Shown here: positions 47,746-63,961 of the stretch, one piece after another
Layout of the letters: each line of letters opens with the position of its first letter
Position numbering within the stretch: position 1 is the first letter of the stretch
Source: Minisyncoccia bacterium
GTDB taxonomy: Bacteria; Patescibacteriota; Minisyncoccia; Phycocordibacterales; UBA9973
DNA: 64,000 nt
Direction: 5' to 3'
Assembly (NCBI GenBank): GCA_038244685.1
Contig: JBBRTD010000001.1
Location: 67,009-131,008, forward strand
The notes under the pieces: generated by a model
The model's input: the letters and a program-made list of their open reading frames with translations, nothing else
Told to the model about the DNA's origin: nothing
The model's database searches: none
Position numbers and translations under genes: made by a program

Positions 47746-47748
47746 TAA

Positions 47749-48309: not shown

Positions 48310-48366
48310 GGGTTAAGTATAACAAAATTAAAGACCCTTGTTACAAGAGTAACAAGGGTCTTTAAT

Positions 48367-48546: not shown

Positions 48547-48561
48547 AATATTATTATAATA

Positions 48562-48617
48562 CCGTTTTCTTAAATTGTAATCAATCTGTTGAAAAAGTAA
48601 TCTGATTAAGTCACGGC
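48562..48617 (+). repeat. Copy a of the ~55-nt hairpin repeat family (diverged)
   Basis: CCGTTTTCTTAAATTGTAATCAATCTGTTGAAAAAGTAATCTGATTAAGTCACGGC. Shares the core CCGTTTTCTTAnATTGTAATCAATCTGyTrAAAA with copies at 50463, 50522 and 63832. Confidence 0.7.
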
Positions 48618-48687
48618 TAATATTTTTTATATCTTACTAAAGTTCTTAATTCCCCAAATATGGTAAATTTATATAAAGAAATTATTA

Positions 48688-48993
48688 CTAATTCTTCTCC
48701 CCTTTAAGTATTATCTTATTCTCGAAACCTCCCTTATCTTTCAGTTTCTGAATTCTAAGTTCTTCAACATTTTCATATTCAGGCAATACCTTCAAAGCTT
48801 CAATCACTTCTATAATATCGGCTAGTTCTTCTGGGTCATTTGCCTCCATAAATTCCTTCATCTCTTCCTCGAGTTTTTTAATTAATTCTATTTTATATTC
48901 TTCTGGTGAAGCAATCCTTTTTTCATATACAATCCCCTTTTTATCAAGAATCTCTGGAATGTTGTCTCTAACTAATTTATTATATTTTTCCAT
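48688..48993 (-). CDS. MazG/HisE-like all-alpha nucleotide pyrophosphohydrolase
   Basis: LVRDNIPEIL...EELADIIEVIEAL pattern. ~101 aa. Confidence 0.5.
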   Translation of the reverse strand: MEKYNKLVRDNIPEILDKKGIVYEKRIASPEEYKIELIKKLEEEMKEFMEANDPEELADIIEVIEALKVLPEYENVEELRIQKLKDKGGFENKIILKGEKN

Positions 48994-49144
48994 AATTTTA
49001 ATTATATCAAAATTCTAAGGTGATAAATAGATATTAAAAAGAAAAAATCACTTGGATTTTTTCTTTTTAATAAAGATAAATCCAAATGATTTAAATAATG
49101 GGTCGGAGCTGCCTTAATGGTACACTCAAACCCGATGTTCGCTC

Positions 49145-49330
49145 CTACTTCTTCTGGTTTTTATTGTTATCCCAGCCTTCTTTGTAGGACTCTTCATGAC
49201 CCTTGGGTGGATTGTAGGAACCACCAAAAATTTGATCCGCAATTATGTCTGCAGTGGAGCTACGTTCACTACTTTTGCTGGAATCTTTCTGGCCCTGATT
49301 ATGGGCTTCTTGATCATAGTTTTTTGACAT
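49145..49330 (-). CDS. Small hydrophilic protein (61 aa), stress-protein-like composition
   Basis: MSKNYDQEAHNQGQKDSSKSSERSSTADIIADQIFGGSYNPPKGHEESYKEGWDNNKNQKK. Preferred over the overlapping plus-strand Cys/Trp-rich ORF. A terminator hairpin lies 3' at 49036-49072. Confidence 0.4.
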   Translation of the reverse strand: MSKNYDQEAHNQGQKDSSKSSERSSTADIIADQIFGGSYNPPKGHEESYKEGWDNNKNQKK

Positions 49331-49526
49331 GACTATCGTTTTTTACTTTACCGAAATCGTTCCGGCTAACGTCTCGCCCTTAATTGAAACAAGAATACTA
49401 AATATAAAATTGATTATTATACCCACTATTCTTGCTTCAATATTCTCTAAGGTACTTATGTTATTCGCAATATACCATACATTTTGCTATTCATCAAGGG
49501 GTGATAGATTGGGGTAAAATTAGAAT

Positions 49527-49883
49527 TTATTTCCTTAAAACTGAAGATTGGAACCATCGCTCTTGGAAGAAAACCTTAGTCATTATTTCTTCATCAGATA
49601 AATTAATTCCTTCTGGCACAACCACCAGTTTATCATCATCATTATCAGACCTATGGATTATTGCAATTACTTTACCTTTAGCTTTTTCTAATGGTTGATT
49701 AATACCCAAATAATAAGCATCTAGCTCTTCCCCATCAGGAGATAACACACCTTTTATATAGCCATAATTTACCTCGTATATAAAATTGTGTTTGGGATGC
49801 TTTGTACCCAAAGGTCTATCCATAATAACTTCCACTTCTTTTCCAAGAAAAAATTTTGCGAGTTTTAAAGATTCTGATTCCAT
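49527..49883 (-). CDS. Short inorganic-pyrophosphatase-like protein
   Basis: NYGYIKGVLSPDGEELDAYYLG...AIIHRSDNDDDKLVVV resembles the Ppa motifs NYGFIPQT..DGDPLDVLV and DEGExDDKIIAV, but the protein is only 118 aa. Confidence 0.35.
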   Translation of the reverse strand: MESESLKLAKFFLGKEVEVIMDRPLGTKHPKHNFIYEVNYGYIKGVLSPDGEELDAYYLGINQPLEKAKGKVIAIIHRSDNDDDKLVVVPEGINLSDEEIMTKVFFQERWFQSSVLRK

Positions 49884-49916
49884 TTTTTAAATATCGTTTT
49901 AAAAGTAAATAACTAA

Positions 49917-50450
49917 TTATTTAATCCAATCAATTTTTGTTACAGACCCATTCTCATATCCAGGAATATCATAAAAATATTTAGGTTCCCCTCCTTCTTT
50001 AAGCGTCTCAAGAATTCTACCAACTCCAGCATGGCTGACTAATAAAATATTATCAGATGAATCATTTAATTCTTTAATACAAGAAATTACTCTCTCACTA
50101 AATAGTTTGGGGTTTTCGGCACCAGGAGCATTTACTAAATCAGTTGACGTAGCTTCATGGATAGGAGTGCCAGAAAGATCTCCCATATCATATTCTGTAA
50201 TGCGGTCATCAATAATAATTTGAGATATATCAAAGCCTAATTCTACGGCTATAATTTGTGCTGTTTTCAATGCTCTCTTAAGTGGAGAAGAAATTATTCT
50301 ATTAATTTTTAAATTTTCTTTTTTAATTTCGATTGCTGTGGATAAAGCCTGTTCTTCGCCTTTTTTAGTTAGGATAGAATCATCTCTTTGCCCTGCAAAA
50401 GTATGTCGTATATTAGCTTCGCTCTCCCCGTGTCTTACAAAATATATCAT
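49917..50450 (-). CDS. Histidine phosphatase (PGAM/SixA branch), free-standing paralogue of the IleRS-inserted domain
   Basis: MIYFVRHGESEANI (RHG), IISSPLKRALKTAQI, IIIDDRITEYDMGDLSG and ILLVSHAGVGR. Confidence 0.8.
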   Translation of the reverse strand: MIYFVRHGESEANIRHTFAGQRDDSILTKKGEEQALSTAIEIKKENLKINRIISSPLKRALKTAQIIAVELGFDISQIIIDDRITEYDMGDLSGTPIHEATSTDLVNAPGAENPKLFSERVISCIKELNDSSDNILLVSHAGVGRILETLKEGGEPKYFYDIPGYENGSVTKIDWIK

Positions 50451-50462
50451 TTTTCTATTATA

Positions 50463-50521
50463 CTCCCGTTTTCTTAGATTGTAATCAATCTGTTGAAAAC
50501 GCAGTCCAGCGAAGTCGTGGC
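50463..50521 (+). repeat. Copy b of the ~55-nt hairpin repeat (near-identical to copy d)
   Basis: CTCCCGTTTTCTTAGATTGTAATCAATCTGTTGAAAACGCAGTCCAGCGAAGTCGTGGC. Confidence 0.8.
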
Positions 50522-50580
50522 GCCCGTTTTCTTAGGTTGTAATCAATCTGCTAAAATGCAATCCGGGAAGGGCCAAAATA
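50522..50580 (+). repeat. Copy c of the hairpin repeat (tandem to b, tail diverged)
   Basis: GCCCGTTTTCTTAGGTTGTAATCAATCTGCTAAAATGCAATCCGGGAAGGGCC... Confidence 0.75.
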
Positions 50581-50626
50581 GGCTATAAAAGTCGTTACAG
50601 TGAGTTTGGTTATGTTGTAACTTATT

Positions 50627-51133
50627 TTAAAATTTATTAATATCTATATATTTTTCTACAGCATTAACATCATCTAATTGGTAAAGATGATTTCTATCAG
50701 CTAATTCATTTTTATACGCAACTAAATCATAAGGGTTGATTAATGATATTTCTATACCATCAACTACTTTCATTATATTGGGAAATTTACAATAATTATC
50801 TTTTGTTTGAAACCATTTAGTTTGTTCTTTATTACTCATCATAAGGGTATCGATATCAGTTATATCTATCTCCTGACTATTATAGTTAATTGAGAGAGTA
50901 TTACAGTCCCATTTAGCATTTGAATAATGTTTTGGACCAGCAGTTATATAATCAGAAACTTCTGAAACAATAACCGGAAAATACTTCCCTGAAAGAGAAA
51001 TATCTATATCGTTAACTGATCTAGTTGAGCCATATACATGAGCTGCAAATCCGCCACCTATTCTATAGGGTATATTATTTTTATTTAAAATTGAAACTAT
51101 CCATTTTAGAGCATTTATAGTTTTTTCTTCCAT
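50627..51133 (-). CDS. Nucleotidyltransferase, ANT(2'')-like (aminoglycoside 2''-adenylyltransferase family fold)
   Basis: NIPYRIGGGFAAHVYGSTRSVNDIDISL parallels WIGGGWAIDARLGRVTRKHDDIDL of ANT(2'')-Ia. ~168 aa. Confidence 0.5.
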   Translation of the reverse strand: MEEKTINALKWIVSILNKNNIPYRIGGGFAAHVYGSTRSVNDIDISLSGKYFPVIVSEVSDYITAGPKHYSNAKWDCNTLSINYNSQEIDITDIDTLMMSNKEQTKWFQTKDNYCKFPNIMKVVDGIEISLINPYDLVAYKNELADRNHLYQLDDVNAVEKYIDINKF

Positions 51134-51209
51134 AAATTTTATTATATCAAAGTTACAAAGTGATAGACAATTATTAAAAACTAGTTATATAAAATATAGT
51201 TTAATAGTT

Positions 51210-51275
51210 GCTGCCAGACCTGGATTGTGAGTACAATTCTAGAAGTTTACATATTCAGTAAAGCTTTGCTATTCT
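51210..51275 (+). repeat. Direct repeat DR1 related to the tRNA-Gln 3' end (distal boundary of the candidate islet)
   Basis: GCTGCCAGACCTGGATTGTGAGTACAATTCTAGAAGTTTACATATTCAGTAAAGCTTTGC is ~80% identical over ~60 nt to 57413-57474. Its first 16 nt are identical to the complement of the tRNA-Gln 3' end. Confidence 0.6.
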
Positions 51276-51292
51276 TTGTTTAACTTTAAAAA

Positions 51293-51733
51293 TTAAAATT
51301 CTATTTCTCCTACATCGACTGAAGGATATGACTCCTTGTAGCATTCACCACGAGATCCATAATAAGAAACAATGCGTGCAGAAAAATCTACATCATAACC
51401 AATGACACCAGCATCCCAAGAAGTAGAGAGAAACTCTGCAAAAGTGCTCTGTCCTGCTTGGTCATTACGAATAGCTATAATAACTGCTTCTTCATTAAAA
51501 TCAGGAACATTGCTCATGCCACTTATTAATGGAGTACCTTGCTGTACGACTACACCATCTTTCATTACATAAATACTCTGTAACCCTGGCAATGACCATA
51601 GATTGTGTTCTACACCCGCAAGCCTCAAACATTCAGCAAGATATGCGAAACCTCCAATTTTTGGGCGGTGTGCCATTGCGTGCTTCATTGCTATTTGTAG
51701 TTTTTCTTGAGATGAATTCATAAATACAAGCAT
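51293..51733 (-). CDS. DUF1398-like (YbcV-like, prophage-associated) protein; visibly GC-richer than neighbours
   Basis: HRPKIGGFAYLAECLRLAGVEHNLWSLPG...QQGTPL...VPDF...DQAGQSTFAEFL...WDAGVIGYDVDF pattern. Codon usage departs from the local AT-rich norm. Confidence 0.3.
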   Translation of the reverse strand: MLVFMNSSQEKLQIAMKHAMAHRPKIGGFAYLAECLRLAGVEHNLWSLPGLQSIYVMKDGVVVQQGTPLISGMSNVPDFNEEAVIIAIRNDQAGQSTFAEFLSTSWDAGVIGYDVDFSARIVSYYGSRGECYKESYPSVDVGEIEF

Positions 51734-51803
51734 AACATTTTTCTCTTTTAGAGAAAAATCTACATAACTTTTCTATTTAAACCTTACTTAGTTTTAATAA
51801 AAG

Positions 51804-52379
51804 CTAAATTATTTTAATTAACTTAGGTCGTGCTTTTTTCCAATCTTCTTTTAGTAATCCATACATATAAGAATCATGAATTTTACCAGACGCTCTACAT
51901 TTAGTATTCTTTCTTTGCATTCCTTCTAATTTATATCCAACTTTTATTTGAGTAGCATTCGAAGCTTTATTTTCTCTATACACAGAAGATCTTATTTTTC
52001 TTAATTTAAGTTTATTAAATACAAAATCATTAAAAGCTATTTTAGCCTCAGTCATATAACCATTCCTCCAATATTTTCTATTTACCCAAGAACCACTATC
52101 CCCTGTCCCAGAAAATCGATTTATTTTATGGATACCAATAACTCCGATTACTTTCTTTTCAGATTTTAACTCAATAAAAAAAACATATTCATCTGAATTT
52201 TTTGTTTCCCATTTTTTTATCATTCCTTTGATAAAATCCTCGGCATCTTTTCTTTTATAAGGATATGGAACTCTAGATAACCATCTTGAAATTTCAAAAT
52301 CACTAATACCATCAAAAATATCTTTCCAATCGCTCGTCTTAGGCTCTCGAAGTATTAATCTTTTGGTTTCAAGTTTCAT
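51804..52379 (-). CDS. GNAT family N-acetyltransferase (RimL/RimJ-like)
   Basis: LETKRLILREPKTSDWKDIF...VIGVIGI...RKYWRNGYMTEA. Confidence 0.65.
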   Translation of the reverse strand: MKLETKRLILREPKTSDWKDIFDGISDFEISRWLSRVPYPYKRKDAEDFIKGMIKKWETKNSDEYVFFIELKSEKKVIGVIGIHKINRFSGTGDSGSWVNRKYWRNGYMTEAKIAFNDFVFNKLKLRKIRSSVYRENKASNATQIKVGYKLEGMQRKNTKCRASGKIHDSYMYGLLKEDWKKARPKLIKII

Positions 52380-52394
52380 AATTATATTATACTC

Positions 52395-52751
52395 CTATTT
52401 TTTAGTCTTTTTCAAATTTTCAATAACTCTAAATTTAGTAATTCTGTATATTAAATCAAAAGGAATAGGTTCTTCAAACGAAAATTGAACACTCCCTTTT
52501 GACATCTTGTATTTAGATAACTCTTTTTTGAATTTAATAATACTTGAGGGTGCAGGGAAAAATCCGACATGTTTTTTGAACCCACCGAAGTGAACCAAAT
52601 TACCATTCAACCTAAAGGTGGGAATACCATAGCTAATCACCTCATCTGCATTAGGTGCAGCTTTTTTAATTGTGTTTCTTACTTTATTTAAAATATGCTG
52701 AATATCTTTAGGAAAATTTTTTATATAATTATCGATATCGCTACTTTTTTT
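52395..52751 (-). CDS. DUF1801 (YdhG-like) domain protein
   Basis: NYIKNFPKDIQHILNKVRNTIKKAAPNADEVISYGIPTFRLNGNLVHFGGFKKHVGFFP. Likely start at MKKSSDIDNY. Confidence 0.4.
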   Translation of the reverse strand, partial: KKSSDIDNYIKNFPKDIQHILNKVRNTIKKAAPNADEVISYGIPTFRLNGNLVHFGGFKKHVGFFPAPSSIIKFKKELSKYKMSKGSVQFSFEEPIPFDLIYRITKFRVIENLKKTKK

Positions 52752-52832
52752 CATAAATATAATTATACCAAAACAATAGTTAGAACGCTTGCTGGCAGTT
52801 TGGGTCAACGTCGGAACTTATTTAATAGAAAA

Positions 52833-53543
52833 TTAATACTTTTTACTTGAACGTAATTTTCTTATTTCACTAGAAGTTATGAATATTGAGCTGGCACATA
52901 ATGGAAGCATCGCCATTAAAGCCCTTATTCTACTTGTTGTATATTTATAATCTTTATTATTTTCAGTTAAAGTTTCACTCATGTCTAGGCAATGTATATT
53001 TTGTGAATATTGTCTGTATACATTGTTGTACCACCTAGAATTTTTTGTTAATCTTGCTCTCTCATCGATTTTACAACCAAACAAACCATTAGTCTTTATT
53101 TTTTTATATTCTTCTTTAGTAAAATGACTTTTTATTTCTTCCATACCCTTATCCCAATTGGGAAACTTTTTTGAATATTCCTTATCCCAATCAACGGTTA
53201 CAACTAATTTATTTTTATGAGCTATTTGGGCTGCTAAAATTCTAAAAAAAGCATTATCTTTTTCTTTACTTATTAAGAGTAATAAGTAGTCTAAATTTAT
53301 TTTGATTTCCACTAACACTCTCATTAATATTTGAGCATCGGAGACTTGTCCTACATATGCTAATCCCAAGATTGATTCAGTAAGGCTACTTGTCCTAAGG
53401 ATAATACTTTTTAAATACATATCTGGTAAAGGATTTTTGTTCTGTGGGATTTCAATTTCATTAGCAAATTCTAATCCAGATTTTATAATATTCTTTATTA
53501 GAGTTAATTCTTTGATTTTAACGGCATCATTTATTTTTTTCAT
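52833..53543 (-). CDS. Hypothetical protein (236 aa; soluble, helical)
   Basis: ORF only. No motif assigned. Confidence 0.4.
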   Translation of the reverse strand: MKKINDAVKIKELTLIKNIIKSGLEFANEIEIPQNKNPLPDMYLKSIILRTSSLTESILGLAYVGQVSDAQILMRVLVEIKINLDYLLLLISKEKDNAFFRILAAQIAHKNKLVVTVDWDKEYSKKFPNWDKGMEEIKSHFTKEEYKKIKTNGLFGCKIDERARLTKNSRWYNNVYRQYSQNIHCLDMSETLTENNKDYKYTTSRIRALMAMLPLCASSIFITSSEIRKLRSSKKY

Positions 53544-53582
53544 AAATATTTAATTTAAATGGATATATTACACACCGTTGTC

Positions 53583-54335
53583 TTATTTATTTTTTTTAGA
53601 AAATAAATTTTTGACAGCCTTCTTGCAAGTAGAAATTAATTTTTTGCCGTTAGTTTCAAGATAATCTATCCAAGAAAAGATTGCTCTATCTATAAATAAT
53701 CCACCAATTACAAGACAAATAAGAACAGTATATATATAGGATAAATTATTATAATTTATACTGCTTTCATATGCCCACTTCAGGTTTATATATGTAAATA
53801 CAGCTAAAGAAATTGCATGTAATAAAACATCAGAGTTTATATTTTCATTAGTGCTTTCTACTCCTTCTTCTTCCCACTGACTACTCATTCCATTTCCATT
53901 ATCTTCTCTTTTTGAAATAGCCTTTTTGTACCAATCATTATTTATTGGTAGATAATTATAGTGCCAGTCTCTTCTTCGTTTATAGCCACGTTTGTCATAA
54001 GACCATATTATTCTGTCTACAACTAAGCTTAATAATGCAATTATCACTACTAACGTACATAAAACATAAAACCATTTATATTGTTGTAAAAATGGTAAAT
54101 ATTTTTCGATTTCTTTTAGACACATGATTAATACTATAAGGATAGAAATAGTAAGAAAAGTTCGATTAATTTTTGATGAATGTTCTTGTGGTTTAAAATA
54201 TATATAACGACCAAATGCTTTGTAAATCACATACATTAAAATGTAAATAACAGCCAGGTGAAACATAGTTGCTTCATGAAGTAACACATTTTTTAATTCA
54301 TCAAAAGATAGTAGAAATAAATTTTCATTTAACAT
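53583..54335 (-). CDS. Hypothetical polytopic membrane protein
   Basis: ORF with 5-6 hydrophobic segments. Confidence 0.4.
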   Translation of the reverse strand: MLNENLFLLSFDELKNVLLHEATMFHLAVIYILMYVIYKAFGRYIYFKPQEHSSKINRTFLTISILIVLIMCLKEIEKYLPFLQQYKWFYVLCTLVVIIALLSLVVDRIIWSYDKRGYKRRRDWHYNYLPINNDWYKKAISKREDNGNGMSSQWEEEGVESTNENINSDVLLHAISLAVFTYINLKWAYESSINYNNLSYIYTVLICLVIGGLFIDRAIFSWIDYLETNGKKLISTCKKAVKNLFSKKNK

Positions 54336-54348
54336 TTTTTATAATTTA

Positions 54349-54873
54349 TTAATTATTAATTAAAATACCACTAAGAGCATTTAGTAGAGAAGCAACTATT
54401 CCTATAATTGCAACTGTTTTATATTTTTTACTTTCTTTTGGAAAATTATTAGAAAACTCCAATGTAGCAAAACTTGTTAGAATTCCAAGAGGTGGAAGCA
54501 GCCATGTTAAAATGTTTGACCAAACAATCCATTGTATCAGTGTTATATTTATATTTTTTCTTTTTAAGTACCATTTACCAAACCATTGTCCAATATAGTA
54601 AGCACCGAAGAACATTAAAAGAACAAGTAAGCCAAGATATTTACCGATGAGCATACCACCTATTATACTTACAAAAGAAACTACATAACCAATTATTGTT
54701 TTAAAAGTATTGGTCATTTTTTTTGATTCCTTTTTTTCTGCCACTGATGGTGTTTTTTCTTGTTCTTGTTCTTTATTAATTATCTTTATTCCATTTCCAC
54801 ACGATGAACAAAAGTTAGCTTCTCCTTGAATTTTATTTCCACAATTTTGACAAAACATATTTATTATAAGCAA
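54349..54873 (-). CDS. Zinc-ribbon (N-terminal CxxC-x10-CxxC) membrane protein, paralogue 1 (4 TM)
   Basis: MFCQNCGNKIQGEANFCSSCG, then 4 TM segments. Confidence 0.55.
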   Translation of the reverse strand: MLIINMFCQNCGNKIQGEANFCSSCGNGIKIINKEQEQEKTPSVAEKKESKKMTNTFKTIIGYVVSFVSIIGGMLIGKYLGLLVLLMFFGAYYIGQWFGKWYLKRKNINITLIQWIVWSNILTWLLPPLGILTSFATLEFSNNFPKESKKYKTVAIIGIVASLLNALSGILINN

Positions 54874-55418
54874 TCTGCTTTATTAAATGATACAAAATAG
54901 CTTTGTGCTATATTTTCGACTGTATATGAATATTCCATATTAATATCACGATTAAGTAAATTTTTTGTTGCGTCATTGCCACAAACACTTTTTTTTAAAT
55001 AAACTTTAATTGTTTCATCTGTCACACCTGTTGTATCAACATTTGTAAGAACAGCATGATAACGAATTGCATTTGTTTCTGCTGTGATATCTGTCAACAT
55101 TGTTGAATCATCTAATTTAGTAGGTAATACCATACTTGATTTTGTTTCTTTAACGGCTTGAATAATTAATTCTTCTTTTGACTGAGAACTACTACTTATA
55201 GAGGAATCTCCTTGAATTAAATATTTACCAACCCCTATAGCTAATAAAAAAACAACCACAGAGACTACACTCATTAAAGTAGATTTAATTCCTTTTTTGG
55301 GTTCTTCTGAGATTATTTTTGCCTCTTCCTTTTTTGATTCTTCTTCTACTTTTTGACCACACTTAGAACAAAACTTAGTATTACTATCAAGTTCAGTATT
55401 ACAATTTTTACAAAACAT
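54864..55418 (-). CDS. Zinc-ribbon membrane protein, paralogue 2 (1 TM + ectodomain)
   Basis: MFCKNCNTELDSNTKFCSKCG, then one TM and a Ser-rich ectodomain. Its 5' leader is near-identical to that of paralogue 3. Confidence 0.55.
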   Translation of the reverse strand: MFCKNCNTELDSNTKFCSKCGQKVEEESKKEEAKIISEEPKKGIKSTLMSVVSVVVFLLAIGVGKYLIQGDSSISSSSQSKEELIIQAVKETKSSMVLPTKLDDSTMLTDITAETNAIRYHAVLTNVDTTGVTDETIKVYLKKSVCGNDATKNLLNRDINMEYSYTVENIAQSYFVSFNKADCL

Positions 55419-55468
55419 ATAATTATTTCTTATGATAAAAATTTAAATGACTAATTCAAATTAAAATA

Positions 55469-55978
55469 CTATAAACCATTCTGCCTTAAGCACATTTCAT
55501 ATTCTTTCTCTGTGGCTTCTGTAACATTTGTTTTTTCGGATTGTGGAAGTCTCTCTTTTGTATCCTTTTCTAATAAAAAACATTTAACTGACTGTAACCT
55601 ACCATTCCCTTGATACTCACCTCCAGTTCCGCATTTTTCATCGTATACTTTTTTATTTATATCGGCTTGCTCTTTTATAATACCTAAATCAGCAGGAATT
55701 ACTTCTGTAAACCAAGAACACCCTTTTTTTATATTAGATGGTCTTATTTGAACCCAATAAAAAGTAAATCCAATTATTAAAATAATAGCTACTATTACTA
55801 ACCCCAAAATTGAATGTTTATTTTTTATAAATTGTTCTTCTAAACTAGATTCTGGAATTTGAGATAATTTTCCTTCTTTAACTATATTAACATCAGCAAT
55901 AATTTTAATTTCTTTTCCGCAACTTCTACAAAATTTTGCCTTTTCTTCATTTTCAGTTCCACAATTTTTACAAAACAT
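55469..55978 (-). CDS. Zinc-ribbon membrane protein, paralogue 3 (1 TM + Cys-containing ectodomain)
   Basis: MFCKNCGTENEEKAKFCRSCG, then one TM and an ectodomain with 4 Cys. Confidence 0.55.
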   Translation of the reverse strand: MFCKNCGTENEEKAKFCRSCGKEIKIIADVNIVKEGKLSQIPESSLEEQFIKNKHSILGLVIVAIILIIGFTFYWVQIRPSNIKKGCSWFTEVIPADLGIIKEQADINKKVYDEKCGTGGEYQGNGRLQSVKCFLLEKDTKERLPQSEKTNVTEATEKEYEMCLRQNGL

Positions 55979-56011
55979 AGAATTATTATTTATGATAAAT
56001 ACTTTGAATGA

Positions 56012-56815
56012 CTAATTCAAATGAACATATATTTTCCTTTCTCTTATTTTAGAGGCCTCAGCTAATGCATCTGAAATTTCTTTTAAGTGTGAATGTATCA
56101 TTTCGTTAGAAATATGCATAGTATTAAAACCATTTTTGTGAGAATAATAACCTCTATTTAAATCAGCTACGATTTGATGGGGATTCGTTAGATGTTGAAT
56201 TCCATCAACTTCAACATTTAATTTTGCTCTAGGGATTGCTAAATCTATATGCTTATGTCCATCATCTAATTCTAGATATACCCTAATGCCAAGTCTTTCT
56301 AGTGCATCTTTTAAATTATAAGCTTCTTTTGTTGGGCTTGGCTTCTTATGAAAAATTCTTAATGTATTATTTTTATCTAAATAATTTTTTATTAATTCAA
56401 TATCTTTAAAATCTTTTTCCCTTCCTAGTGCTTTTTTAAATTTGCAAAGCTCTTCAAGATTCATAAAAGGAATATCTTCTATTATTTTAGCTGATAAAAT
56501 CGCTTCTTCAACTGTTGTATTATATTTATCCCAATTTAATTTAGGGATAATCTCAAAAATATCTTTTTTTAAATGAATATTTCCATATCTTAATTCCTCT
56601 TCCCAATCTCCTGTACTCTTTAATATTGTATGTAATTTTGCAGTAATGGCTATATCGATATCAATAGCATCTCGAATATTAAGAACATCTAATATGCCGC
56701 TTCCAACAACGACATATTCTCCATATGGAAAATTTAATGATTTAATTTTTTCTATTATGTTCATTTTTATAAAAACACAATTAAGCAAAGAATATCGACT
56801 TTCTCCTAAATTCAA
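56012..56815 (-). CDS. Fusion protein: N-terminal nucleotidyltransferase-fold domain + C-terminal DUF559 (Vsr-like endonuclease fold) domain
   Basis: YVVVGSGILDVLNIRDAIDIDIAI (NTase GS...D.D). C-terminal HIDLAIPRAKLNVEVDGIQH (DUF559-like ...E.DG.QH). Alternative start MNIIEKIKSL at 56764. Confidence 0.4.
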   Translation of the reverse strand: MNLGESRYSLLNCVFIKMNIIEKIKSLNFPYGEYVVVGSGILDVLNIRDAIDIDIAITAKLHTILKSTGDWEEELRYGNIHLKKDIFEIIPKLNWDKYNTTVEEAILSAKIIEDIPFMNLEELCKFKKALGREKDFKDIELIKNYLDKNNTLRIFHKKPSPTKEAYNLKDALERLGIRVYLELDDGHKHIDLAIPRAKLNVEVDGIQHLTNPHQIVADLNRGYYSHKNGFNTMHISNEMIHSHLKEISDALAEASKIRERKIYVHLN

Positions 56816-56833
56816 TTTTTCATTATCATGAAA

Positions 56834-57340
56834 TTATTTATCCTTGGTATTATCAATAATAATATTTGCCTCAGTTAGCAAAGATTTTGTTATTCCAATA
56901 TTCCATGCCCTCATAACACCATGCCATTTCCTAAACTTAAGAAATTGTTCCCAAGTTAATTCAATTATTCTCTTTAATCTATAGTTCTTAAATATCTGAA
57001 CAATAATTACATATTCAAATTTCTTATCTGGTATTGAAGTGCTTCCCTTCTCATCTATATTATGAAAAACACCTGTTGTGTTTCCAGGTTCAGAAATTGT
57101 CTTAATACTATATCTCTCTCCTTTTCTACTTACTGCATCTATATTTTTAGTTCCTTCTGGCGCAGCCTGTAAATTAGGTAGACCACTTATTGAATTATAT
57201 GTTTCTATTACTAAGAATTCCCCTCTCTCTCCAACTATATTGTTTGTCCTAACAAGATTACGTTTTTTAAGTTCTTGTTGGATATCTGCATATCCCGTCC
57301 ACAACTCTTCATTGTTAAATTCTTGTAATTCTATTTTCAT
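56834..57340 (-). CDS. Hypothetical protein (168 aa), operonic with the NTase-DUF559 gene
   Basis: 18-nt gap to the downstream gene. No confident motif (VGERGEFLV...NIDAV...). Confidence 0.4.
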   Translation of the reverse strand: MKIELQEFNNEELWTGYADIQQELKKRNLVRTNNIVGERGEFLVIETYNSISGLPNLQAAPEGTKNIDAVSRKGERYSIKTISEPGNTTGVFHNIDEKGSTSIPDKKFEYVIIVQIFKNYRLKRIIELTWEQFLKFRKWHGVMRAWNIGITKSLLTEANIIIDNTKDK

Positions 57341-57412
57341 ATAATTTAATTTATAAGTGATTAAATATTTTTATATTGTATATTTTAACATTATATTTAA
57401 TTTTAATATATA

Positions 57413-57549
57413 GCTGCCAGACCTGGACCGTGAGTACACTTCTCGAACCTTACAGGTTCAGTACAGCTTTTCCGTTCGTGAGTATACTCACAAGGAAAAG
57501 CGTTTCTCGTCCAGGGCGCAAATGAAGAAATTCATTTGCTTCTGGCAGC
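57413..57549 (-). ncRNA. Degenerate tRNA-Gln-like structured element (~135 nt): tRNA acceptor/T-arm ends enclosing nested hairpins; also carries direct repeat DR2
   Basis: Minus-strand reading: UGCCAGA-AGCAAAUGAAuuucUUCAUUUGC...CUUUUCCuuGUGAGUAUACUCACgaacGGAAAAG...GGUUCGAG-aaguguacucacgg-UCCAGGUCUGGCAGC. The 5' 7 nt and 3' 16 nt are identical to tRNA-Gln. Function unknown. Confidence 0.4.
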
Positions 57550-57590
57550 AATTTAAAAAACCTGCACACAAAGTGAGGTTTTTTAAATTG

Positions 57591-57661
57591 CTGCCAGACC
57601 TGGACTCGAACCAAGATAACCTCCTCCAGAGGGAGGTGTCCTACCATTAGACGATCTGGCA
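57591..57661 (-). tRNA. tRNA-Gln (anticodon CUG)
   Basis: Hand-folded: acceptor UGCCAGA/UCUGGCA (U1-A72, G73 as in bacterial tRNA-Gln), D-arm GUCU/GGAC, anticodon stem CCUCC/GGAGG with loop CUCUGGA, T-arm CUUGG-UUCGAGU-CCAGG. 71 nt with no encoded CCA, followed by a terminator hairpin. Confidence 0.8.
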
Positions 57662-57739
57662 ATAATATTTCATTAACTCAAACATATTACCATAAAACAC
57701 CAAAAAATACAGTTGGAATCATTAAAATTTTAATGTAGA

Positions 57740-58474: not shown

Positions 58475-58476
58475 TA

Positions 58477-58508
58477 TAAAAGCCCCCGACTATAGTCGGG
58501 GGCTTTTA
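58477..58508. terminator. Bidirectional intrinsic terminator
   Basis: AAAAGCCCCCGAC-tata-GTCGGGGGCTTTT. Confidence 0.75.
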
Positions 58509-58516
58509 TATTAGAA

Positions 58517-60199
58517 TTATTTCTTCTTATTTTTCTGACAAGCTTTTATGAATGCAGTAAAAAGTGGGTGTGGATTTAAAGGTCTTGCTTTGAACTCTGG
58601 GTGGAATTGTGTTCCCAAAAAGAATGGATGTACACTTCCTGGCAATTCAGCTATTTCACATAGACTACCATCAGGTGAAAGACCAGAGAATACTAGCCCA
58701 GATGCCTCCAGGGCTCCCCTGTAGTCATTATTAACCTCATATCGATGTCTGTGACGCTCTGAAATTGAAGTAGTCTTGTAGGCTCTTTCAGCTACACTTC
58801 CCTTCTTGAGAGTAGCCGAGTATGCACCTAAACGCATACTTCCACCTAAGTCTTTCTTCTCCACTTTAGCTTTCTGATCTTCCATAATATCTATGACTAA
58901 ATCTTTGGCATTCGGATTTACTTCACGAGTATTAGCATCTTTTAATTTCAAAACATTGCGAGCATATTCTATGACAAGAAGCTGCATTCCATAACACAAT
59001 CCGAAGTAAGGAATATTATTCTTTCTAGTGTATTCTATTGTTTTTAGAATTCCCTCTATGCCTCTTGACCCAAAGCCTCCGGGGACAATGACTCCATCAA
59101 ATTTCGAAAGATTTTTAATTGCTTTTGGATTTTTTTCAAATTCCATTGATGAAATCCAAGTAAGGACAGGCTTACTACCTGAAGCATAAGCAGAATATTT
59201 TATAGCTTCAATAACTGACAAGTATGAATCCGAAAGTGTGAAGTCACCAGTATTAAAATATTTACCAACGATAGCGATATGGACTTCTTTATTTTTTGTA
59301 TGAGAGGAAGTCGCAAATTTCTTCCACTTGGTTGAGCCTTCATTAACCGCCGGGCCACAAACAATACCAATCGTTTCGCAAATCATATCCCCTAGTCCCT
59401 CCTTCTCAAAGTTTACTGGTATATCATAAATACTCTTTTCGTCTGGAGCAGAAATTATATGATCGATTGGCACATTACAGAATAAAGATAACTTCTCTTT
59501 TCTTTTACTATCAAGTGGCATTTTACTGCGGGCGACAATTATGTCCGGTTGTATACCAGATGAATTTAAAGTTCGAACAGCATGCTGAGTAGGCTTTGTT
59601 TTCATTTCTCCAACGTTACTTGGTACTGGCAAATAAGAAACCATAACGAAAAATACACTATTGTGTTTACGAAGTTTCATTATACGAGCCGCTTCCAAGA
59701 AAAGAATATTTTCATATTCACCCACGGTGCCGCCGATTTCAATAATAACAATATCTGCATTAGCTTTATTTCGAGCTGTTTCAATACGGTTTATAACTTC
59801 AAGTGGGATATGCGGAACGACTTGGACACAAGCCCCAGCATATTCTAGATTTCTTTCGCGTTCAATCACACTTTGGTAGACACGCCCTGTCGTCATATAG
59901 TTTGCACGAGAAAGGTCTACGCCTAAAAATCTTTCATAGTTCCCCATGTCTTGATCGGTCTCGTCTCCATCATCAAGAACAAAAACCTCGCCATGTTCGG
60001 TTGGGTTCATAGTTCCAGCATCAATATTTATATATGGATCAATTTTAATTGCAGTTACCTTGCGTCCACGATCAGAGAGTATACGGGCAATAGATGAGGC
60101 CGTGACCCCCTTACCAACACCAGAGATAACTCCACCGACAACGAAAATATACTTACAGTTAGATAAACTCTCCAGCTTTTCCCCTGGTATTTTTTCCAT
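58517..60199 (-). CDS. pyrG: CTP synthase
   Basis: KYIFVVGGVISGVGKG, and a GATase domain with GLCYGMQLLVIEYARNV (Cys nucleophile) and HPEF. Confidence 0.9.
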   Translation of the reverse strand: MEKIPGEKLESLSNCKYIFVVGGVISGVGKGVTASSIARILSDRGRKVTAIKIDPYINIDAGTMNPTEHGEVFVLDDGDETDQDMGNYERFLGVDLSRANYMTTGRVYQSVIERERNLEYAGACVQVVPHIPLEVINRIETARNKANADIVIIEIGGTVGEYENILFLEAARIMKLRKHNSVFFVMVSYLPVPSNVGEMKTKPTQHAVRTLNSSGIQPDIIVARSKMPLDSKRKEKLSLFCNVPIDHIISAPDEKSIYDIPVNFEKEGLGDMICETIGIVCGPAVNEGSTKWKKFATSSHTKNKEVHIAIVGKYFNTGDFTLSDSYLSVIEAIKYSAYASGSKPVLTWISSMEFEKNPKAIKNLSKFDGVIVPGGFGSRGIEGILKTIEYTRKNNIPYFGLCYGMQLLVIEYARNVLKLKDANTREVNPNAKDLVIDIMEDQKAKVEKKDLGGSMRLGAYSATLKKGSVAERAYKTTSISERHRHRYEVNNDYRGALEASGLVFSGLSPDGSLCEIAELPGSVHPFFLGTQFHPEFKARPLNPHPLFTAFIKACQKNKKK

Positions 60200-60202
60200 A
60201 TT

Positions 60203-61123
60203 TTATTTTCTTAAGTATCGGCTAATAGCAAAGAAACTTGAAATACCTCCAAGTAAAATGCCAGAGCCAAGCATAATAATGAATAATTGTAAGAAATTTG
60301 ATTTGTAGTAATTATATAAATTTATTCCAATGAAATCTGTCATGTGATTCCCTAACCAAATAGAAATAGGGATAAAGAGAAGAACCGTCAGAACGGCAGA
60401 AGCAACTCCAACTAAAATACCAGAGACGATGAATGGACCTTGGACATATTTAGATCCAGCTCCAACTAATCTCATAACACTAATCTCTTCACGAGACATA
60501 TAAATAATAAGACGAATTGTATTAAAGGTTATTATTATAGAAATAATGATAAGAACGAATGACACAATAAAGCCAAGACTCTTAGCTCCATTTATAATAG
60601 AAGTAAGTCTATCTATAACTAATTTATTCTGACTGTAGTCAATTTTATCGATAATAGTTAAAGCCCCTTTGGATAAAGCATTGTCATTCTCAAAATATTT
60701 AGAAATACTTTCATATTGAGATGGATCGTTGGCTTTTATATTTAAAGATGCTCCAAGAGGATTATCATTAAGCTCATCTAAGGCTTGCAGAGTTAGATAA
60801 TCATTTGAATGCTTATCTTTAAAATTTGAAAGGGCTTCGCTTGAAGAAGTATAAGAAATGTCTTTAATTTCAGGTAATTTACTCAAGGACTCCTCGACTT
60901 TCTTTATAGAAGATTCATCGGCTCCAGGAATAAAGTAAACAGTTACATCAACTTTTTCCCTAATATCATTTAGAGATGAATTAAGTGCGGCTTGAACAAA
61001 GATAAGAGATGTTACAACAAAAAGAGTTATAGTCATGATGAGAATACTCGACAAAGAAGTAAACCCGCTACGTACGAAACTTTTCCATCCTGACTTTATT
61101 ATTCTTTTTGCGTGAATTAACAT
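60203..61123 (-). CDS. ftsX: Cell division ABC transporter permease FtsX
   Basis: FtsX topology: N-terminal cytoplasmic, TM, periplasmic domain, 3 TM. Located after ftsE. Confidence 0.75.
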   Translation of the reverse strand: MLIHAKRIIKSGWKSFVRSGFTSLSSILIMTITLFVVTSLIFVQAALNSSLNDIREKVDVTVYFIPGADESSIKKVEESLSKLPEIKDISYTSSSEALSNFKDKHSNDYLTLQALDELNDNPLGASLNIKANDPSQYESISKYFENDNALSKGALTIIDKIDYSQNKLVIDRLTSIINGAKSLGFIVSFVLIIISIIITFNTIRLIIYMSREEISVMRLVGAGSKYVQGPFIVSGILVGVASAVLTVLLFIPISIWLGNHMTDFIGINLYNYYKSNFLQLFIIMLGSGILLGGISSFFAISRYLRK

Positions 61124-61130
61124 ATATTTA

Positions 61131-61808
61131 TTATATCATATACTTACCCTCTTTATCATCTCGAATAATGCGACCATTTTCGAGAGTTATTACACGCTTT
61201 TTAATTCCATCAACTAATCCTTTATTGTGAGTCGTTAAGATTACAGTCGTTCCTAAGTCATTAATCTTCTTAAGTATATTTATAACTTCCATGGCATTCG
61301 CTGGATCAAGATTCCCCGTTGGTTCATCGGCAATTATCAAATCTGGCTGAGTAATAATGGCACGAGCAATAGCTAATCTTTGCTTTTCTCCACCGGAAAG
61401 CTGATATGGGAAATGAAAAGCTCTATTTGTAAGATCAACAAGCTCTAATACATTAGGGACATACTCTTTAATCTCTTCATCGCTCTTACCTGTTGCTTCC
61501 ATAGCAAAAGCTATATTTTCATAGGCGGTGCGGCCTGGCAAAAGACGAAAATCCTGAAAAACAATACCCACCTTACGACGAAAATTCATAAGGTCTCTCT
61601 TGGACAACTTATGAATATCAGTAGATTCATAAAAAACAGTTCCAGAGGTAGGGTATTCTTCTGCTAAAATAAGTTTTGTAAGAGTAGTCTTACCGGCACC
61701 TGAATGTCCAACGATAGAAACAAATTCTCCTGGGGCGATAGAAAGCGTCACATCTTCTAATGAAGAATTATCTTTGTATTTTTTTGTAACATTGTCGAAG
61801 TAAATCAT
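61131..61808 (-). CDS. ftsE: Cell division ATP-binding protein FtsE
   Basis: GHSGAGKTTLTKLI, LSGGEKQRLAIARAI and [11 protein letters not shown]. 225 aa. Confidence 0.85.
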   Translation of the reverse strand: MIYFDNVTKKYKDNSSLEDVTLSIAPGEFVSIVGHSGAGKTTLTKLILAEEYPTSGTVFYESTDIHKLSKRDLMNFRRKVGIVFQDFRLLPGRTAYENIAFAMEATGKSDEEIKEYVPNVLELVDLTNRAFHFPYQLSGGEKQRLAIARAIITQPDLIIADEPTGNLDPANAMEVINILKKINDLGTTVILTTHNKGLVDGIKKRVITLENGRIIRDDKEGKYMI

Positions 61809-61824
61809 TAATTGGTTAATTTTA

Positions 61825-62712
61825 TCACAAATTCACTTCGGCAACAATAAATTCATCTATCATGCCACTTTCAAGCACTCCGTCAACATCATGAATCTCT
61901 ATTCCCGTTCGATGATCCTTAACCATCTTGTAAGGATGAAGCACATATGAACGAATCTGGCTTCCCCATTCTATCTCTGTTGACTTAGTCGAAGAGAGTC
62001 CAGCTTTTTCTTTTGCCTTATCAACTTCTCTTTTCTTATAAAGCTTGCCTTTTAGCATTTCCATAGCTTTTTCACGGTTTTGTTCCTGGGAACGTTCCGT
62101 CGTCACGTGAACAGAAAAGTTAGTCGGCAAGTGAATTATCCGAACTGCCGTTTCCCTTTTATTCACATTTTGCCCCCCGGGGCCGCCTGACTTTGAAAAT
62201 TCAATTTTGATATCGTCTGCTGGAATTTCTATGGCTGTATCATTTTTTAATAATTTGGGGATGACTTCAACTAATGAAAATGAGGTGTGCCTGAGAGCCT
62301 TAGCATTAAAAGGAGAAATGCGGACAAGACGATGAACTCCTGATTCATTCTTAAGAGTGCCATAAGCTCCCTTGCCTGAGACTTCCAGAGAAATATTTCT
62401 ATATCCGCCTAAATCATTCTTATTCTCATGAAGTAAAGTAACTTGCCAGCCTTTCCTTTCTATATATTTTAAATACATATGTAAAAGCATAGAAGAGAAA
62501 TCTTCAGCATCATCACCTCCAGCCCCTGAAAGAATTGATAAAATAGCCTCCCCTTTGTCGTATTTCTCACCGCCTGATATTTCATCTTTAAGCTCCCCTA
62601 TCTTTTTAATCGTGGCCTGTGCTTTCGCTTTATCTTGCCAAAAATCCCCTTGGCTCATTTGTCCTTCTAAAATTTCTATTTCTTTTTTTAATTCTTCAAT
62701 CTCTTTGGCCAT
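61825..62712 (-). CDS. prfB: Peptide chain release factor 2 (short N-terminus, no programmed frameshift detectable)
   Basis: SGAGGDDAEDFSSMLLHMYLKY, RISPFNAKALRHTSF (SPF = RF2) and SGGPGGQNVNKRETAVRIIHLPT (GGQ). Confidence 0.85.
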   Translation of the reverse strand: MAKEIEELKKEIEILEGQMSQGDFWQDKAKAQATIKKIGELKDEISGGEKYDKGEAILSILSGAGGDDAEDFSSMLLHMYLKYIERKGWQVTLLHENKNDLGGYRNISLEVSGKGAYGTLKNESGVHRLVRISPFNAKALRHTSFSLVEVIPKLLKNDTAIEIPADDIKIEFSKSGGPGGQNVNKRETAVRIIHLPTNFSVHVTTERSQEQNREKAMEMLKGKLYKKREVDKAKEKAGLSSTKSTEIEWGSQIRSYVLHPYKMVKDHRTGIEIHDVDGVLESGMIDEFIVAEVNL

Positions 62713-62775
62713 TCTAGTATCATACCAGAAATATCCCGATTCGGTCTACGGAAGTTTCAGAGGTCTATTAATTTT

Positions 62776-63804
62776 TTATTTTTCTAAATTGTGTTCAGCT
62801 TTAAAATATTTCTTCGGTAAAATAGAGAAGTAATCATCTATATAGGGGTGCATCATATCACAAGCCACAAAAGCAATAACAACTTCTTTATTTTTATTCC
62901 TGTATTTATTTAATGTTTTATTTTTCTTCATATCTTTTAACATTTTCTCTATCATTGCAAGTTGCATACCAGTCGAAGGACCAACAAAAAGCCCAAGTCT
63001 AATAAGAGCTAAACTTCTTTCATAAGCAGAAACTGCATCGATTGGAATTACGGTATCAACAATGTCATACCAAGGAATACCAAGTTTAAGTATAGCTTCA
63101 TCAACTCGAGGTCCTGGAATTGAAGAACCCTTTTTGATTGAAGAGCCAGCAACGTATATATCTTTATTCTTACTTTTTAGATAACAACCCGATCCATAGA
63201 TAGTACCAGCTGTTCCAATCGTTGAAGCAAAAATGGTAAGCTTATCCCCAAGTTGAGACCAGAGTTCTTTGGCAACATATTCTTCTGAGGCTCCGGCATT
63301 GCCTGGATTTATATACTGATTAAGATTATGCCATCCTTTCTTTTTACCTAATTGCTTCGCTTCATAAACTCCACCTTTATTACTATGAACATCAGGGCTG
63401 CGTGGTCCATGAGAAATAAGCAAATCTGCACCAACTAATTTAAGTAAACGTTTTTTATGTTCAGGCACATCAGGGGTAATAATGGCATGCAAGTTTGGTA
63501 TACCAAAATGTCGAGAAAGAATAGCAAGAGATAGAACTGTATTCCCTGAAGAATATTCTACTAAATGTTTTGTAGCGGAAAGAACTTTTTTATCCATACC
63601 ATTAAGCATCTGCCAAGAAGGCATAGACTTTATATTTCCAAGAGGAACAAACTGCATAAGCTTTACAAATATTCTCACTCCGTCTTTAGCAAATTTATTA
63701 AGAGCTGGAGGAAGTTCTACTACGGGAGTCATACCTAGAGCGCCTGGAGTAAGGAATTCGGTCACGGCACACTTCCCCTCAAAAACTTTTTTGCTATTGA
63801 TCAT
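62776..63804 (-). CDS. PLP-dependent beta-substitution enzyme, cysteine synthase/CBS family (divergent)
   Basis: KLMQFVPLGNIKSMPSWQMLNGM (PLP-lysine region), YSSGNTVLSLAIL and the Gly-rich loop GTAGTIYGSG. Confidence 0.6.
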   Translation of the reverse strand: MINSKKVFEGKCAVTEFLTPGALGMTPVVELPPALNKFAKDGVRIFVKLMQFVPLGNIKSMPSWQMLNGMDKKVLSATKHLVEYSSGNTVLSLAILSRHFGIPNLHAIITPDVPEHKKRLLKLVGADLLISHGPRSPDVHSNKGGVYEAKQLGKKKGWHNLNQYINPGNAGASEEYVAKELWSQLGDKLTIFASTIGTAGTIYGSGCYLKSKNKDIYVAGSSIKKGSSIPGPRVDEAILKLGIPWYDIVDTVIPIDAVSAYERSLALIRLGLFVGPSTGMQLAMIEKMLKDMKKNKTLNKYRNKNKEVVIAFVACDMMHPYIDDYFSILPKKYFKAEHNLEK

Positions 63805-63831
63805 TTTATTTGTAATAAATTAATAATATGA

Positions 63832-63890
63832 GCCACGACTTCGCTGGACTGCGTTTTCAACAGATTGATTACAATCTAAGAAAACGGGAG
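63832..63890 (-). repeat. Copy d of the ~55-nt hairpin repeat (minus orientation), abutting the tRNA-Thr 3' end and 27 nt upstream of the CysK-like ATG
   Basis: Reverse complement = CTCCCGTTTTCTTAGATTGTAATCAATCTGTTGAAAACGCAGTCCAGCGAAGTCGTGGC, identical to copy b over 59 nt. Confidence 0.8.
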
Positions 63891-63961
63891 CCGAGGGTCA
63901 GAATCGAACTGACGACCTTTCCCTTACGAAGGGACTGCTCTACCAACTGAGCTACATCGGC
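63889..63961 (-). tRNA. tRNA-Thr (anticodon CGU)
   Basis: Hand-folded: GCCGAUG-UA-GCUC-AGUUGGUA-GAGC-A-GUCCC-UUCGUAA-GGGAA-AGGUC-GUCAG-UUCGAUU-CUGAC-CCUCGGC-U. One U6/C67 acceptor mismatch and one G27/A43 mismatch. No encoded CCA. Confidence 0.65.

Follow-up and report, generated by a model that had tools for sequence, protein, structure and literature searches.

Very small nested-hairpin repeats in Patescibacteria as candidate non-autonomous mobile DNA elements

Introduction

What are the short, hairpin-forming repeats that lie scattered between the genes of a patescibacterial genome? The genomes of Patescibacteria (the candidate phyla radiation) are tiny and streamlined, and repeats are thought to be few in them. 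In 64,000 nucleotides from one of them (Minisyncoccia bacterium, contig JBBRTD010000001.1; this whole stretch is called the window), a preliminary description had noted four copies of a repeat of about 55 nt that folds as a nested hairpin, one of them fused to the 3' end of tRNA-Thr. The repeat was taken to be a miniature mobile element similar to a miniature inverted-repeat transposable element (MITE), the recombination site of a small cassette system, or a cis-regulatory or small RNA. We favor, at a probability of roughly 0.55, the view that these repeats are a type of mobile DNA in Patescibacteria, non-autonomous, based on hairpins, very small (54-66 nt), and similar to repetitive extragenic palindromes (REPs), REP-derived hairpin doublets (REPINs), and palindrome-associated transposable elements (PATEs).

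Results

Five intergenic copies of a two-hairpin unit

The unit consists of CUCCC, a 13-bp nested hairpin (P1), GCAGU, and a short hairpin (P2), in that order, and spans 54-59 nt in the window. Coordinates are those of the window, copies are named a to e, and related loci and genomes carry L-numbers. A degenerate 36-nt core pattern, with at most 3 mismatches, matched three times, at 48562, 50466, and 63852 (minus strand), against 0 expected from 100 shuffles. Pattern search and repeat finder agreed with the preliminary description on the places of its four copies. A covariance model built from the sequences of relatives (R1) added a fifth, overlooked copy, e. All five are intergenic, and both strands are represented. 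R1 scored b and d at 70.7 bits each, a at 34.9, c at 34.7, and e at 47 bits (E=3e-14).

Copies b (50463..50521, plus strand) and d (63832..63890, minus strand) are intact, lie 13 kb apart in opposite orientation, and are identical at 59/59 positions; the repeat finder reported them as 100% complementary over 59 nt, which bears out the identity claimed earlier. Copy d (CUCCC-P1-GCAGU-P2(CCA..UGG)-C) directly follows the discriminator base of tRNA-Thr(CGU) (63889..63961, minus strand; ARAGORN, and Rfam RF00005 at 61.4 bits). Its CCC comes immediately after U73, not 1 nt further on as had been reported, and the 59-nt identity with b reaches 2 nt into the tRNA gene (C72 and U73). The other end of d lies 27 nt before the ATG of a PALP/CysK-like gene, as described. 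The CUCCC end of b adjoins, on the opposite strand, the TATAAT-N6-ATG of a His_Phos_1 gene (Pfam; 49917..50450, minus strand).

Two copies are decayed. Copy c (50521..50580, plus strand) stands head-to-tail with b at a period of 58-59 nt. Copy a (48559..48617, plus strand) has AUACC in place of CUCCC and has stem mismatches; it lies between a 59-aa gene (48367..48546, minus strand), whose TATAAT-N6-ATG it adjoins, and a 101-aa gene (48688..48993, minus strand). The 1.9 kb from a to b/c hold the 101-aa open reading frame (ORF), a small ORF, a pyrophosphatase-like gene, and the His_Phos_1 gene, and the two sites do flank this cassette in direct orientation. Copy e (7733..7786, minus strand; 54 nt, with the R1 match at 7744-7786) reads CUACC-P1-GCAGUCC-AUUA-GGGCU. 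The inner stem of its P1 (AUACGG/CCUUAU) differs from that of the other copies but is still complementary. It lies between the divergent genes for SHMT (6491..7666, minus strand) and thyA (7799..8740, plus strand), where it stands flush with the upstream edge of the -10 box of thyA.

Empty sites in close relatives

Comparison of insertion-site occupancy across relatives, which had been proposed as a check, gave clean empty sites for d and e. Relatives whose CysK is 90-91% identical keep the order tRNA-Thr(CGU), cysK, prfB, ftsE, ftsX, pyrG, LOG, tRNA-Gln. In L097 and L099, the d site reads ...CATCGGCT/CATAATATT... (slashes mark junctions), whereas the window reads ...CCTCGGCT/CCCG...GTGGCT/CATATTATT.... 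Followed to the ATG, L097 has ...CATCGGCT/CATAATATTATT...ATG and the window ...CCTCGGCT/CCCGUUUUC...GUCGUGGCT/CATATTATTAAT...ATG. The indel is a 57-nt block with GGCT on both sides. The reported fusion to tRNA-Thr is an insertion directly behind the discriminator base; the tRNA gene is the target of d and lies outside the element.

Copy e is missing from L103 (ThyA 98% identical; DNA 77-90%) and from a second species (L104/105). The spacer between the SHMT gene and thyA is 78-79 nt in these relatives and 132 nt in the window. The relatives read GAAAAG/GT/TATAATAAGCTTATG and the window GAAAAGAG/CCCTAATGG...ATGGTAG/TATACTAAGCTTATG, with a unit of 54 nt. Here the unit displaces the native TTGGCA -35 hexamer of thyA. 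Both indels, d and e, consist of the unit alone, without cargo. There were no full copies in 122.8 + 56.7 + 31.5 kb of sequence from relatives, compared with five in the 64 kb of the window. In L108 (PspC 83% identical), the 59-aa and 101-aa genes that flank a are adjacent to each other in the opposite order, without the element, and homology to the window stops at 48561.

These comparisons show the unit to be a discrete block that some genomes have and others lack at sites that are otherwise collinear; they also show unchanged copies at unrelated loci in either orientation. Other genomes give similar examples: L003 and L004, two contigs of one genome, have an identical core, and in L087 a copy or remnant of tRNA-Gln is cleanly interrupted by 66 nt between G17 and G18. 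For single sites, precise loss at short flanking repeats is an alternative; insertion in the lineage of the window is the more parsimonious account. The identity of b and d, the decay of a and c, and the patchiness of the family together indicate a recently active, selfish copy-and-paste element.

L096 (9869-10000) has 130 nt inserted between tRNA-Thr(CGU) and cysK, and this insert closes with another copy of the T-loop and 3' acceptor end of the tRNA (...UCCGAUUCCGACCUUUGGCU). In other lineages, too, the 3' end of tRNA-Thr thus looks like a hot spot of integration.

Helices maintained by compensatory change

P1 is built of three parts. The outer helix of 6-7 bp occurs as CGAUUUC/GAAAUCG, CAAUUUC/GAAAUUG, CGUUUUC/GAAAACG, and CUUUUUC/GAAAAAG variants. 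Next comes an internal loop in which U lies opposite UN, beside an invariant U.G (T.G) pair, and then an inner helix of 5-6 bp closed by a 3-5-nt loop. The linker before P2 is a conserved G(C/U)AGU, and P2 typically has the form (AG)UCC-loop-GGG(CU), frequently ending in GGGCU.

The nested hairpin, described earlier as the fold of the core, is the minimum-free-energy fold of b and d (z=-3.1 as RNA, z=-4.0 as DNA), but the canonical fold has been lost in a (z=+0.45) and c (z=-1.6). Across the family, the inner stem takes 52 distinct sequences, and 421 of its 445 pairs are Watson-Crick. Among 41 distinct sequences, 98.3% of stem positions are paired, with 75 double-sided changes; none of 500 shuffles matched this, and slid controls collapsed. 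RNAalifold independently returned the same nested hairpin, with 9 of the 13 pairs compensated. With compensatory changes across many genomes, the helices of the unit are under selection.

Two further measures did not discriminate. Counts of non-Watson-Crick pairs in P1 (11 G.U and 6 A.C among 445) were not decisive for the functional strand, and closure of P2 by AG...CT was found in 37% of cases compared with 40% in the shuffled control of this lenient test. In an informal comparison by eye, neither a k-turn, loop E, a hammerhead core, nor a BHB intron motif fitted the internal loop and tails.

A second type of unit stands in tandem with canonical units in L018 (about 3250-3330) and L066 (116-170). 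It keeps CUCCC, an outer helix (UGUUUG/CAAACA), and GCAGU, and has the interior UUCAAGAGCACAGCGAUUGACUA. Because R1 misses this type, the family is broader than counted.

A family across Patescibacteria

A 23-nt core pattern matched 12 loci in the genomes of 9 Patescibacteria species, and a pattern with a free inner stem matched 83 metagenome contigs. The metagenome pattern required an initial CU; the first scan did not, and 10 of its 12 loci have CTCCC. Applied to these loci, R1 found 105 copies in 95 loci. Judged by these pattern and model searches, the repeat is a large undescribed family across Patescibacteria. No Rfam family matched at gathering or permissive thresholds, and in the window only the two tRNAs passed; the best permissive match to b-c scored 17.7 bits against a cut-off of 52.7. 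ARAGORN called no tRNA at the units. The core pattern had 0 matches in IMG/VR and 0 in phage and plasmid collections, which argues against an origin from phages or plasmids. The searchable literature held nothing on REPs or MITEs in Patescibacteria.

Several contigs end inside or beside the element (L005 at 3907-3946, L089 at 1137-1153, L004 at 7932-8000, L026, and L039). This suggests that the element breaks short-read assemblies and that copy numbers in metagenome-assembled genomes are underestimated.

Position relative to genes and promoters

The window has a G+C content of about 31% and encodes FtsEX, a release factor, CTP synthase, ThyA, SHMT, and similar housekeeping proteins. The closest protein relatives are labelled Candidatus Nomurabacteria or Paceibacterota. 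TAnnnT occurs 5-8 nt before the ATG of 36 of 78 ORFs, compared with 13.5% at random ATGs, and Shine-Dalgarno-like sequences are found at background level (3 of 78 genes). From this signature, the mRNAs appear to be largely leaderless throughout the genome; examples of such starts are at 48994-49020, 51134-51160, and 57341-57360. The same counts argue against reading the GGGAG of the unit as a Shine-Dalgarno sequence. The release-factor gene (61825-62712, minus strand) encodes 295 aa only, its PCRF match begins at profile position 87, and no CUUUGA frameshift site was found upstream; the orthologues in relatives are equally short.

Of 83 distinct contexts, 21 have the unit directly against a -10 box and in exact register; copies a, b, and e are among them. 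On the other strand, these 21 junctions read GGGAG-TATAAT-N6-ATG, and a -35-like hexamer of the hairpin loop (TTTACC/ATTACA) falls 17 nt upstream of the -10 box, as read from the sequence. The left flanks before CU are ATA (21), ATG (21), AGG (17), GGG (7), and others; the GGG junctions include exact 53-nt head-to-tail tandems in L051, L054, and L089. The CUCCC end points toward the start of an opposite-strand gene in 46 contexts and toward a gene end in 26. Placement between co-directional genes is the commonest arrangement. T-runs after P2 are not enriched (29 of 83, compared with a background of 21-25).

The neighbors are housekeeping genes (polA, tsaE, an IscS-like gene, clpB, hisS, infB, and Nudix genes), and an all-against-all comparison of 575 neighboring ORFs found no family common to more than 5 loci. 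In L009 and L031/57/78, the unit comes after an IscS-like gene, and it does so in either orientation. This recurrence and that at the tsaE-polA junction (see Discussion) suggest either hot spots or retention. Secondary effects on neighbors are possible, for example as hairpins at mRNA 3' ends or through the -35-like hexamer.

tRNA-Gln and the variable region of the window

Seven genomes have a unit between a duplicated tRNA-Gln fragment, the first 10-22 nt of the gene, and an intact tRNA-Gln downstream. The window has its tRNA-Gln(CUG) at 57590-57661, followed downstream by a terminator and then by a structure of about 135 nt (57413-57548, minus strand). This structure starts with the 5' acceptor strand of tRNA-Gln (UGCCAGA), ends with its T-stem and 3' acceptor strand (UCCAGGUCUGGCAGC), and encloses a distant variant of the P1 nested hairpin at 57466..57501 (minus strand; GCUUUUCC-UU-GUGAGUAUACUCAC-GAAC-GGAAAAGC), undetected by R1. 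Judged by its architecture alone, this hairpin may be related to the family. L096 keeps the structure, with arms that match its own tRNA-Gln (UGCGGGA...UCCCGCAGC); it is absent from L097 and L100.

The last 65 nt of the structure recur at 51210-51274 with 82% identity, and this half copy of the variant hairpin ends at the internal loop. Between these two repeats lie 6.2 kb of small accessory genes, so that the repeats are placed much like the att sites of an integrated island. The interval from PspC to tRNA-Gln is variable: between the window (47700-57600) and L108 (11700-17800), the small genes differ in set and order, with only the 59-aa, 101-aa, and DUF1398 genes in common. Copies a, b, and c all stand at junctions where this interval is rearranged. 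There was no integrase in either the window or L108.

Two other repeats occur in the same region. A 63-nt promoter-plus-start region (TTGATATAAT-N7-ATGGAA), present at 48978-49040 and 51118-51180 with 78% identity, serves two unrelated genes, the 101-aa MazG-like ORF and a nucleotidyltransferase-like ORF, which suggests a duplicated or portable promoter module. At 54349-55978 (minus strand), three paralogous genes stand in tandem, exactly 560 nt apart (repeat family D1); each product has 169-184 aa and an N-terminal zinc ribbon.

Discussion

How might so small an element move? We found no transposase, recombinase, integrase, or HUH protein in the window by domain searches and annotations, and no transposase or recombinase among the ORFs that neighbor more than 100 family copies. 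The element would therefore be non-autonomous. Its size of 54-59 nt, the lack of inverted termini, and free stems combined with conserved mismatches and flanks point to a folded single strand rather than a MITE moved by double-stranded cut-and-paste. We postulate that the folded strand is recognized by an enzyme encoded in trans. By analogy with REPs and their REP-associated tyrosine transposase (RAYT), and with the insertion sequences (IS) of the IS200/IS605 type, this enzyme would most plausibly be an HUH/Y1-type single-stranded DNA nuclease-transposase. On single-stranded DNA, RAYT (TnpAREP) cuts at CT to both sides of the hairpin, and the GTAG that lies 5' of the foot of this hairpin serves as its guide (PMC8266576, PMC3479197). 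The unit has G(C/U)AG 5' of P2 and CT at its 5' end, often also at its 3' end.

New copies might be pasted beside purine-rich or CT-ending sequences, and insertions would survive at low-harm sites of a compact genome with leaderless mRNAs. Such sites could include positions upstream of -10 boxes, after tRNA 3' ends, in hairpin loops, and in the D-loop of duplicated tRNA-Gln genes. The exact register with -10 boxes is best explained by survival, since few positions tolerate a 55-nt insertion.

Among known systems, REPs and their composites, bacterial interspersed mosaic elements (BIMEs) and REPINs, come close. They too are short, imperfect intergenic palindromes that occur in both orientations and in clusters or tandems. 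In REPs, the tetranucleotide GTAG stands 5' of the hairpin foot; here, P2 is mostly preceded by GCAG (GTAG in L010, GTAA in a, GCAA in c), and P1 by CUCC(C). Conserved stem mismatches or a bulge, non-autonomy, variation within lineages, and a frequent position in 3' untranslated regions are further shared features. Flanking CT may be another: CU opens nearly every unit, and some copies also have CT at the 3' end. However, the element has two hairpins and CUCCC, a P1 without GTAG, and a modest copy number (5 per 64 kb). No RAYT was found in the 64-kb window or, by weak tests, in 730 kb of loci. The element resembles REPs in its structure but not as to an associated enzyme.

IS200/IS605 elements and PATEs are also similar in their folded, single-stranded subterminal hairpins, the absence of terminal inverted repeats and of a real target duplication, insertion beside a short sequence, and tolerance of covarying stems. 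In contrast to the present unit, PATEs have separate hairpins at the left and right ends, exceed 100 nt, and insert 3' of a fixed tetra- or pentanucleotide. In the present family, CU follows various left flanks (ATA, ATG, AGG, or GGG), and no tnpA or tnpB is nearby. With classical MITEs and comparable repeats (Correia/NEMIS, Rickettsia RPE, ERIC, BOX), the family shares small non-coding spreading insertions and the capacity to land in RNA genes and to supply promoter parts. Those elements, however, are 100-150 nt or longer, with terminal inverted repeats, defined target duplications (e.g., TA), and a known IS origin, whereas the ends here, CUCCC... and ...GGGCU/GUGGC, are not inverted repeats. 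The earlier comparison with MITEs was thus apt as to mobility, which identical copies, empty sites, and patchiness support, but not as to ends and size. The element does not show the features that define CRISPR (clustered regularly interspaced short palindromic repeats), attC sites, classical MITEs, or IS200/605 PATEs, and it belongs to no Rfam family.

Several observations weigh against mobile DNA. Terminal inverted repeats are lacking, and the search for target-site duplications, also proposed earlier, found no more than 2-4 shared nucleotides, GGCT at d and CT at e, which are ambiguous. Of 31 copies whose P2 is closed, 13 have CT as the 3' end and 18 have TT, so the analogy to RAYT cleavage is loose. 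Neither an HUH motif (regular expression) nor an IS200-like match (phmmer, with an IS200 TnpA query) turned up in 730 kb of loci with 2,459 ORFs, though both tests are weak. The two invariant U.G (T.G) positions are both on the CUCCC strand and fit RNA better than a DNA hairpin, and subfamily B (GCUCCGAACC...GGAG-GAUG-CUCC...GGGGUUCGAAC) has tandem G.U pairs in P2. Nucleotides of the loop and internal loop are conserved across distant Patescibacteria lineages, whereas classical REPs are species-specific. Units are antisense to their neighbors by about 2:1, with no clear orientation bias to the lagging-strand template. Lastly, a unit lies at the tsaE-polA junction in both L060 and L085 and beside polA in L004, with different stems; this could reflect vertical retention of a unit that is selected for a function, and not repeated insertion.

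Some of these points lead to a different view, in which the CUCCC strand is made into a small structured RNA of about 60-85 nt. Longer members would add a 5' hairpin (GGAG-loop-CUCC) and a closing helix to resemble a tRNA cloverleaf, CUCCC could serve as a protein-binding site or base-pair with G-rich targets, and spread could be by duplication, as a retro-element similar to a tRNA-derived short interspersed nuclear element (SINE), or as a single-stranded DNA element. The strong covariation, the invariant unpaired CUCCC, U/UN, and GCAGU, and the U.G pairs just mentioned are consistent with such an RNA. Closing helices of unrelated sequence enclose the unit in L043, L055, L056/61, L063/65/67, L084, and L029, and subfamily B has a closing helix and is flanked by T-runs. 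With the GGAG-loop-CUCC hairpin, a closing helix gives a four-way junction whose connectors of 2, 1, 5, and 0 nt have tRNA-like lengths. Some units stand between T-runs like independent genes (L059, L088), those in the seven genomes stand behind a duplicated tRNA-Gln promoter together with 10-22 nt from the start of the tRNA, copy d would be co-transcribed with tRNA-Thr, and the tsaE-polA position is conserved. It is the conserved junctions, the single and tandem G.U pairs, the closing helices, and the tRNA-like four-way junction that keep this view alive. However, the family is patchy: close relatives have no unit at the corresponding positions and no full copy in about 200 kb of sequence. 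Two of the copies here are decayed. G.U pairs are rare in P1, about two thirds of units are antisense to both neighbors with no visible promoter, and e lies between divergent leaderless promoters. T-runs are not enriched, the extra 5' hairpin occurs in only about 15 of 60 non-promoter copies, and neither ARAGORN nor Rfam detects a tRNA-like gene. We therefore consider a free-standing RNA improbable, although it is the main rival, and it is the part of the earlier RNA proposal that survives. In a more specific form, somewhat harder to credit, the family would be a novel class of tRNA-derived structured RNA in Patescibacteria, cloverleaf-like with an elongated 'anticodon' arm, with SINE-like spread and recombination with tRNA-Gln and tRNA-Thr. 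Spread would then go through an RNA or single-stranded intermediate, the 59-nt copies in the window would be the truncated, mobile 3' two-thirds, and CUCCC and GCAGU would serve protein binding or pairing with G-rich targets.

The cis-regulatory part of that proposal fares less well, and we doubt that the unit is an intrinsic terminator, 3'-UTR stabilizer, operator, or promoter module. The exact-register GGGAG-TATAAT-N6-ATG junctions, the frequency of placement between co-directional genes, and a loop that may, from its sequence, supply the -35-like hexamer would all suit such a role. But gene family and orientation are inconsistent, there is no U-tract, most intergenic regions have no element, GGGAG is not a Shine-Dalgarno sequence, and a freely varying inner stem is unfit for a protein operator. 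The thyA promoter of close relatives works without the unit and has a TTGGCA -35 hexamer of its own. Specific candidates were rejected on similar grounds: a riboswitch or leader because the neighbors are unrelated housekeeping genes in both orientations, and an intrinsic terminator because T-runs are not enriched and e lies between divergent promoters. The proposed recombination sites of a cassette system, which would be attC-like and make blocks such as a-to-b cassettes, are a still poorer prospect. Like attC, the unit is a hairpin of the kind recognized by structure, in which the outer helix is semi-conserved, the unpaired spacer asymmetric, and the inner helix variable; attC sizes (57-141 nt) overlap its own, GTTGAAA resembles the R' box GTTRRRY, a, b, and c lie at rearrangement junctions, and the half copy at 51210-51274 ends at the internal loop of the variant hairpin. 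However, IntI, attI, and a cassette array are missing, there is no integrase or recombinase in the window or near the 100+ copies, and no half-sites of the canonical unit occur in 95 loci. The middle base of GTN is variable and unpaired opposite UU, with no AAC/GTT pairing. Many copies are single between housekeeping genes, the d and e indels are the unit alone, and the genes on either side have -10 boxes of their own. CRISPR repeats, solitary or in a degenerate array, can be all but dismissed, as the preliminary description had done. The GUUUUC...GAAAAC termini and the 36-nt palindromic core are reminiscent of such repeats, but there is no repeat-spacer periodicity, tandems abut without spacers, no cas gene is among the neighbors, and the unit has extra conserved flanks and a second hairpin.

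A spreading element of 54-59 nt that lands at leaderless -10 boxes and tRNA ends is unexpected in Patescibacteria genomes. If the family is indeed mobile DNA, its members would be among the smallest mobile units known and would point to a trans-acting enzyme, an HUH/Y1 nuclease or something new. If it is RNA instead, it would be a new, widespread class of structured RNA absent from Rfam. The element can mislead the annotation of tRNA genes and promoters, and it seems to break assemblies. As a mobile element, it would also serve as a marker by which rearrangement and differences between strains could be followed in uncultured lineages.

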